This document shows positions 18,599 to 19,087 of a stretch of DNA of 39,707 bases, one piece after another (position 1 is the first letter of the stretch; every line of letters starts with the position of its first letter). The notes under the pieces were generated by a model. That model saw nothing but the letters and a program-made list of their open reading frames with translations. It did not search any database and was not told the DNA's origin. The stretch comes from a virus. Position numbers and translations under genes: made by a program. The stretch is taken from UHGV virus genome UHGV-0130034, one strand, 5' to 3'.

Positions 18599-19087
18599 TT
18601 ATTTCCCTTCTGCTTGCTTCCCAGTGGTGAACGAATCAACGCTGCCGCCGGAATAGCAGTCAAGATCAATTGCGACTTGTACCGCTTCTCTCGCATTTTT
18701 GCCACAGTGCATGGCAGTGCGAGCAATCAGCCCACCACTACCAATGGCGTAAGGTTCAACCTGTAGCGAAATACTCGCCCGCGTTTCGCCTTTCTCTTTT
18801 GAGATGATGTAAGCACGACCAGCACCGATGATAGCAAGCGCTGTGAAAGAGAATGTCGGGAGAAATTCTGATGCATACGTCAGGTTGTTCTTAAGCAGTT
18901 CCTGCAATTCCATCTCCGCGCCGCAATCACCAGAACAACCTAATGCAACCACTTTACTGCCGCAAACCTCCCACCCAGATTCTGGCGGTGTGTAAATCTT
19001 TTGTTCTGTATACGAACACACAACATCACCAGATGATGCCTGGGTGTCAGATGCCAGGGTCTTTCCATCCCATGCAATAGTGGTCAT
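18599..19087 (-). CDS. HslV/proteasome beta-subunit-like Ntn-hydrolase (predicted threonine peptidase)
   Basis: Met-Thr-Thr-Ile N-terminus (compare HslV TTIVSV), Lys ~30, AIGSGG motif ~116 (HslV AIGSGG); 162 aa; tightly packed between the 80-aa ORF and gp3. Confidence 0.6.

Follow-up and report, generated by a model that had tools for sequence, protein, structure and literature searches.

The phage relatives of the proteasome were brought together in 2021 by Fuchs, Alva and Lupas, who described the PPH family on computational grounds (324 sequences at that time); an earlier survey of proteasome-like proteins from the same group, in the 2017 Anbu paper, did not mention phages. According to the 2021 survey, PPH proteins are about 140 residues long, occur in tailed phages and prophages and belong to group I, together with HslV and BPH. 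They have kept the catalytic triad, have no propeptide, and 'PPH/RPC ... lacks the second helix (H2)'. In HslV, the pore motif Arg86/Arg89/Lys90 follows on from this helix (PMC5777263), which also contributes Ala79 and Lys80 to the pocket for the C-terminal tail of HslU; Phe54, Phe57 and Gln114 make up the rest of this pocket (PMC6429459). A literature search recovered no experimental work on HslV-like or PPH proteins of phages.

The window analysed here, i.e. the whole stretch of 39,707 nt, is the genome of a P22-like phage in minus-strand orientation. The preliminary description had drawn attention to an open reading frame of 162 codons that begins with Met-Thr-Thr-Ile and encodes a lysine near position 30 and an AIGSGG motif near residue 116. 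All of these features were recovered (18599..19087, with Lys30 and with AIGSGG at residues 114-119), and the coding strand is the minus strand. The ATG is the first start codon past the upstream in-frame stop, so the N-terminus must be Met-Thr-Thr. A Shine-Dalgarno sequence, GGAG (19094..19097, minus strand), can be read 6 nt upstream of this ATG, and the TGA of the preceding gene, which encodes a DUF2560 protein, ends 1 nt ahead of it, a junction that suggests translational coupling. Comparison with the copy in phage Dewey yielded a dN/dS of 0.09 at a dS of 0.61; to judge from such sequence comparisons, the gene is functional, under strong purifying selection and selected for catalysis.

The family assignment of the encoded protein was approached in three ways: i) by comparison with existing family models; ii) by profile searches; and iii) by searches with a predicted structure. 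Pfam returned nothing for the protein, even at an E-value of 10, and PHROGs placed it in phrog_1040, the 'peptidase HslV family' (E 4e-37). A profile built from 37 homologues gave 261 matches in the PDB, of which the best 60 were all proteasome beta subunits, HslV or BPH (best E-values from 5.5e-9 to 6e-8; top match an archaeal beta subunit at 5.5e-9). With hhalign, the alignment to E. coli HslV (a reference sequence equal to PDB 5ji2 apart from one residue) reached a probability of 96% and an E-value of 1.5e-9; it brought the two MTTI starts and the two AIGSGG motifs into register and matched Asp14 to Asp17, Lys30 to Lys33 and Gly53 to the oxyanion glycine. The AlphaFold model of the protein (pLDDT 95) retrieved from the PDB, using Foldseek, chains of HslV, the proteasome, BPH and Anbu only, and a fold search of BFVD with the same model retrieved 41 clusters of phage proteins (E ≤ 1e-3). 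Proteins with a weak fold similarity to the PPH model were also seen in BFVD for the Agricanvirus phages Special G and Bosolaphorus. By profile and by model, the protein is a proteasome-fold Ntn hydrolase (MEROPS T1-like; clan of the Pfam Proteasome family PF00227) with an alpha-beta-beta-alpha sandwich, so the fold that had been proposed from the motifs stands.

The full set of catalytic positions could be assigned: Thr2 corresponds to Thr1 of the mature enzymes, Asp14 to Asp17, Lys30 to Lys33, Gly53 to Gly47 and Ser117 to Ser129, and Asp143, Ser146 and Gly147 correspond to Asp166, Ser169 and Gly170, which form the D-x-x-S-G-G motif of the 20S beta subunits. The first homologue search was based on a word index, and the conservation of these positions was re-checked in two unbiased sets. 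The first set consisted of 13 homologues from phages and metagenomes, retrieved with tblastn or by looking up contigs (sources: the jumbo phages EL and SPFM16, and Jedunavirus, Kagunavirus, Vibrio, Proteus and Microbacterium phages), all 13 of which keep the MTT start, Asp14, Gly53, Gly116 and Gly118. The second set comprised 143 independent family representatives (P0100-P0242), drawn from 1.84 billion proteins by an HMM search that uses no index. In these, the second residue is Thr in 93% and Ser in the other 7%, Asp14, Lys30 and Gly116 are invariant (100% each), Gly53 and Gly118 are kept in 99%, Gly147 in 98%, Ser117 in 87% and Asp143 in 84%. The N-terminal threonine, Lys30 and the GSG motif on which the preliminary description had relied are thus conserved across the homologues. 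A serine at the second position, as in the 7%, has been seen in some BPH subfamilies as well. The helices H3 and H4 are intact and conserved too, and hold the most conserved non-catalytic motif of the family (A-M-H-C-G-K-x-A-x-E-A-V); in proteasome beta subunits, H3 and H4 are published to make the ring-to-ring contacts. The term self-compartmentalising, applied to the enzyme in the preliminary description, goes further than these features support.

Within this fold, the protein belongs to PPH, to judge by its match to the published features of the family; the published PPH representative WP_042125023.1 was not returned by a cluster look-up of ten central members of our family. Like PPH proteins, the protein is compact, has no propeptide, no H2 and no partner ATPase, and keeps the helices H1, H3 and H4 and the equivalents of Thr1, Asp17, Lys33 and Gly47. 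The family retrieved here has a median length of 148 aa, and 99% of its representatives start with Met-Thr or Met-Ser. The 162-aa protein of the window is longer than the typical 140-148 residues, as it carries a beta-hairpin insertion (around residues 34-45) and a disordered tail, and five non-catalytic residues that are well conserved in the family are replaced in it: the consensus residues Trp64, Gly68, Pro72, Ala13 and Pro105 are Leu, Asn, Ala, Ser and Ser here, respectively. A minority of the family is 190-266 aa long and has C-terminal extensions, e.g. the protein of Vibrio phage 1.193.O (locus L011, 3001-3801). The 20S beta subunits have the same fold, and all of their catalytic positions are present in the protein, those of the Asp166/Ser169/Gly170-type motif among them; the protein differs from these subunits by the lack of a propeptide, an alpha-ring partner, H2 and the C-terminal H5, and is some 40-60 residues shorter. 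BPH (PDB 5ovs, 5ovu) differs from it as well, being a cellular protein of around 190 aa with H2 and a long acidic pore loop, solved as a double ring of 14 subunits. HslV forms a dodecamer from two hexameric rings. The same family goes under other labels, namely PHROG 1040, VOG2070 and, in RefSeq phage records, 'peptidase HslV family'. The gene is a further member of PPH, a family that has already been annotated and described by computation, and the novelty claimed for it at first was overstated, given that the HslV-family label (PHROG 1040) occurs in hundreds of phage records and the family was published in 2021.

The preliminary description had likened the protein to HslV itself and had proposed that it could hijack the HslU of the host. 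This would make it a phage surrogate of HslV that docks on the host unfoldase to form a hybrid ATP-dependent protease with an altered specificity. The comparison with HslV speaks against both parts of the proposal. None of the HslV models of NCBIfam matched; the only NCBIfam match was the archaeal proteasome beta model TIGR03634, at 15.5 bits versus a cutoff of 224. Where HslV has four helices, the model of the window protein has three (57-66, 119-127 and 132-142), and a loop of 14 residues takes the place of the long HslV helix H2. H2 is likewise missing from a second model, made for a family member of 148 aa (P0081), which has helices at 45-58, 111-119 and 124-134 and one 4-residue turn. With H2, the pocket residues Ala79 and Lys80 are absent, as is the pore motif into which the helix leads. 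The equivalents of Phe54 and Phe57 are Met59 and Gln62, positions that vary across the family. HslV furthermore has GDICIYTN where the window protein has the D-x-x-S-G-G of the 20S beta type, and an hslU neighbour, which the gene for HslV (ClpQ) has, was not found either. On sequence and model, the peptidase is no HslV orthologue, and docking to the HslU of the host is unlikely because H2, a part of the pocket for the HslU C-tail, is missing. In addition, full-length PPH homologues are present in Microbacterium phages, which infect actinobacteria. To our knowledge, actinobacteria generally do not have HslUV. Taken together, we consider a surrogate HslV quite unlikely, and a hijack of HslU by canonical docking is disfavoured.

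The gene order of the window is: Q antiterminator, holin, endolysin, Rz, three small genes encoding proteins of 95, 94 and 66 aa, the DUF2560 gene, the peptidase gene, small terminase, large terminase and portal. The gene for the Rz spanin (20254..20715, minus strand) ends the lysis cassette and forms the upstream boundary of the accessory block. The DUF2560 gene, a homologue of P22 orf80 (19089..19331, minus strand), lies immediately upstream of the peptidase gene; it is 100% identical to the copy in phage Dewey and is adjacent to the peptidase gene in the prophage of E. coli MS 115-1 as well. Only 5 nt downstream of the peptidase gene follows the gene for the small terminase subunit, of the P22 gp3 type (18105..18593, minus strand; Pfam GP3_package, E 8e-31; PHROG 606). 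The position between lysis cassette and terminase, in an accessory slot of a tightly packed late block, is therefore as it had first been reported, and so is the absence of an ATPase partner: a gene for an HslU-like protein is absent within the window, and AAA+ proteins are absent among the neighbour families listed for 38 lineages (see below).

At 540 bp upstream of the peptidase gene, the gene for the 94-aa protein (19625..19909, minus strand) encodes a homologue of the Acb2 family of cyclic-oligonucleotide sponges, which act against CBASS. It matches the Pfam model Acb2_Tad1_hairpin with 66 bits, and matches over its full length T4 Vs.4 (7uq2) and PaMx33 p26 (8h2j, 8ixz) with an E-value of 2e-8. 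Its PHROG family, phrog_717, is listed there with an unknown function. For the peptidase gene, the Acb2 homologue is context and no partner. The two other small genes between Rz and the DUF2560 gene encode a 95-aa protein that looks helical (19952-20239, minus strand) and a 66-aa protein with a hydrophobic C-terminal segment (19362-19562, minus strand); neither matched a family in Pfam, PADLOC or the PDB, and the 66-aa protein has a marginal PHROG hit. Because the Acb2 homologue is their neighbour, they are candidates for further accessory or anti-defence functions. PADLOC returned nothing for the peptidase gene or its four upstream neighbours.

Neither a promoter nor a terminator of its own, as a moron expressed in the lysogen would have, was convincingly present beside the peptidase gene. 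A near-consensus sigma-70-like promoter (TTGACA-18-CATAAT, 11/12 matches; 21998..22027, minus strand) was found where the Q antiterminator gene (22005-22523) has its 3' end; this gene was identified via the identical locus L021. The promoter-like site is probably the late promoter, a candidate by its sequence, for the lysis, accessory and structural genes.

To see how far this arrangement extends, 80 loci from IMG/VR were grouped at 70% identity into 38 lineages, 34 of which had enough flanking sequence. The peptide MTTIAWD served as the seed for these loci, which are biased by it and include many enterobacterial lambdoid prophages. Across the contexts read there was no conserved neighbour. 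The gene usually stands alone as an insertion, either within a late or structural operon or among a series of small genes. Proteins of around 80-97 aa that are encoded just upstream in four contexts were considered as a conserved partner and rejected, as they are unrelated in an all-against-all BLASTP; the only shared upstream neighbour is the DUF2560 gene, and that is common only to Dewey and the E. coli prophages. In the lambdoid subset, the genes upstream of the PPH gene encode Rz, holins and Q antiterminators. An HslU-like AAA+ ATPase of 569 aa is encoded by some nucleus-forming jumbo phages (Erwinia phage RAY gp116, locus L015, 1353-3062), to which the Agricanvirus phages named above are related. 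RAY gp116, which is reported as an 'HslVU protease family' protein and to localise to the phage nucleus, was also considered and set aside: it is this ATPase, lies outside the PPH family, and its localisation data are consequently not applicable to PPH.

In many loci the PPH gene comes first in the packaging module, and the terminase families that follow it differ. In locus L020 (5001-5471) the gene lies 9 nt before a small terminase gene of the Terminase_2 family, and in locus L018 (4800-5246) it overlaps a large terminase gene of the Terminase_6N family by 8 nt, with no recognisable small terminase in between. Over L018, L020, L021-L100 and the window, the terminases downstream comprise small subunits of the GP3_package, Sf6_terminase and Terminase_2 families and large subunits of the Terminase_6N and Terminase_3 families. 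Within 3 kb downstream, a large terminase is found in 11/34 lineages, a portal in 13/34 and a small terminase in 7/34. A peptidase that serves DNA packaging or virion assembly, e.g. by processing the terminase, the portal or a head component, would explain why the gene so frequently heads the module. Its abutting the terminase genes in three lambdoid types (GP3_package in the window, Terminase_2 and Terminase_6N) and its place between the head-tail adaptor and head-closure genes in Erwinia phage Gungnir39 fit such a role. Against it, the gene is rare among P22-like phages and absent from P22, which assembles without it. P22, as far as we know, requires no maturation protease. The gene also sits elsewhere in Kagunavirus, Jedunavirus, jumbo phages and several metagenomic phages, and the counts given above come from the MTTIAWD-seeded set with its many enterobacterial lambdoid prophages. 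Moreover, lambdoid phages are known to carry accessory genes in the slot where the lysis genes meet the terminase genes, and in these loci the slot also holds genes for Rha, KilA-N, ORF11CD3 and P63C. The position ahead of the packaging genes is mainly that of this known slot, and we hold a function in packaging or assembly to be unlikely.

The distribution of the family is broad. The search retrieved 12,861 clusters (at 50% identity) with E ≤ 1e-3 and 9,344 with E ≤ 1e-10; judging from the PDB profile search, true HslV and beta subunits are expected to score only around 1e-4 in a library of that size. A full-length match (E ≤ 0.01) was found in 436 of 50,697 phage records, and 138 stretches match in IMG/VR. 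The hosts of the family are tailed phages and prophages of Proteobacteria and some actinophages, and all copies from E. coli and other enterobacteria for which the context was read lie in the late region of a prophage. Among P22-like phages, a single cultured one carries the gene, i.e. Dewey, from the BASEL collection (89.5% identity). It was furthermore present in 10 of 5,426 complete E. coli genomes, in all ten under the PGAP label 'hypothetical protein'. The P22-like prophage of E. coli MS 115-1 (locus L016) has a peptidase gene of 97.8% identity and no Acb2 homologue. The strain is, we presume, the source of a well-studied type III CBASS system.

We think it probable that the gene product is an ATPase-independent threonine peptidase of the PPH family, made late in infection from an accessory gene and with host takeover or counter-defence as its candidate role. 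In the mechanism that we propose, the gene would share a transcript with the lysis and packaging genes, started at a Q-dependent late promoter, as the gene order and the match to the promoter consensus suggest. Methionine aminopeptidase accepts threonine as the second residue. The host enzyme would remove Met1 and expose the threonine, which would serve as nucleophile in the way known from HslV; Asp14 and Lys30 would activate it, the backbone of Gly53 would provide the oxyanion hole, and Ser117, Asp143 and Ser146 would hold the threonine in place. A dedicated unfoldase would not be needed and the HslU of the host would probably not be docked, and it follows that the enzyme would cut unfolded proteins or specific targets late in infection. 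The gene itself would be a dispensable accessory gene.

That the protein hydrolyses peptides at all may be doubted on the basis of two relatives. Connectase is a protein of the proteasome fold with ligase activity (PMC8665760). The active site of BPH, the closest orphan to have been characterised, is intact, yet no protease activity was detected in standard assays with model substrates (PMC5777263). The phage protein might by analogy be a dead scaffold or a decoy or, like connectase, a ligase or transpeptidase with sequence specificity; we judge this very improbable.

For the threonine peptidase, host takeover or counter-defence is tentatively the most plausible role as far as the genomic context suggests one. 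The hint at counter-defence comes from two neighbouring anti-defence genes among many contexts, i.e. the Acb2 homologue here and an Acb3 gene 2 kb upstream of one distant PPH homologue. A more specific version would be a late, ATPase-independent protease that destroys a host immune sensor or effector triggered by the terminase, the portal or the capsid. Immunity triggered by late proteins would explain both the recurrent place before the packaging module and the Acb2 neighbour; in this specific form we regard the proposal as rather unlikely.

With around 9,300 clusters (50% identity, E ≤ 1e-10), against the 324 sequences of 2021, PPH now appears as a large family of proteasome relatives that, by their sequences, are catalytically intact. 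The occurrence of a member in a P22-like E. coli phage, with Dewey as a cultured relative, brings deletions, Thr2Ala mutants and host-range screens within easy reach, and makes testable how viruses use a minimal proteasome subunit without an unfoldase. If the counter-defence reading were true, this would be the first demonstrated case of a proteasome-family enzyme with which a virus antagonises the immunity of bacteria.
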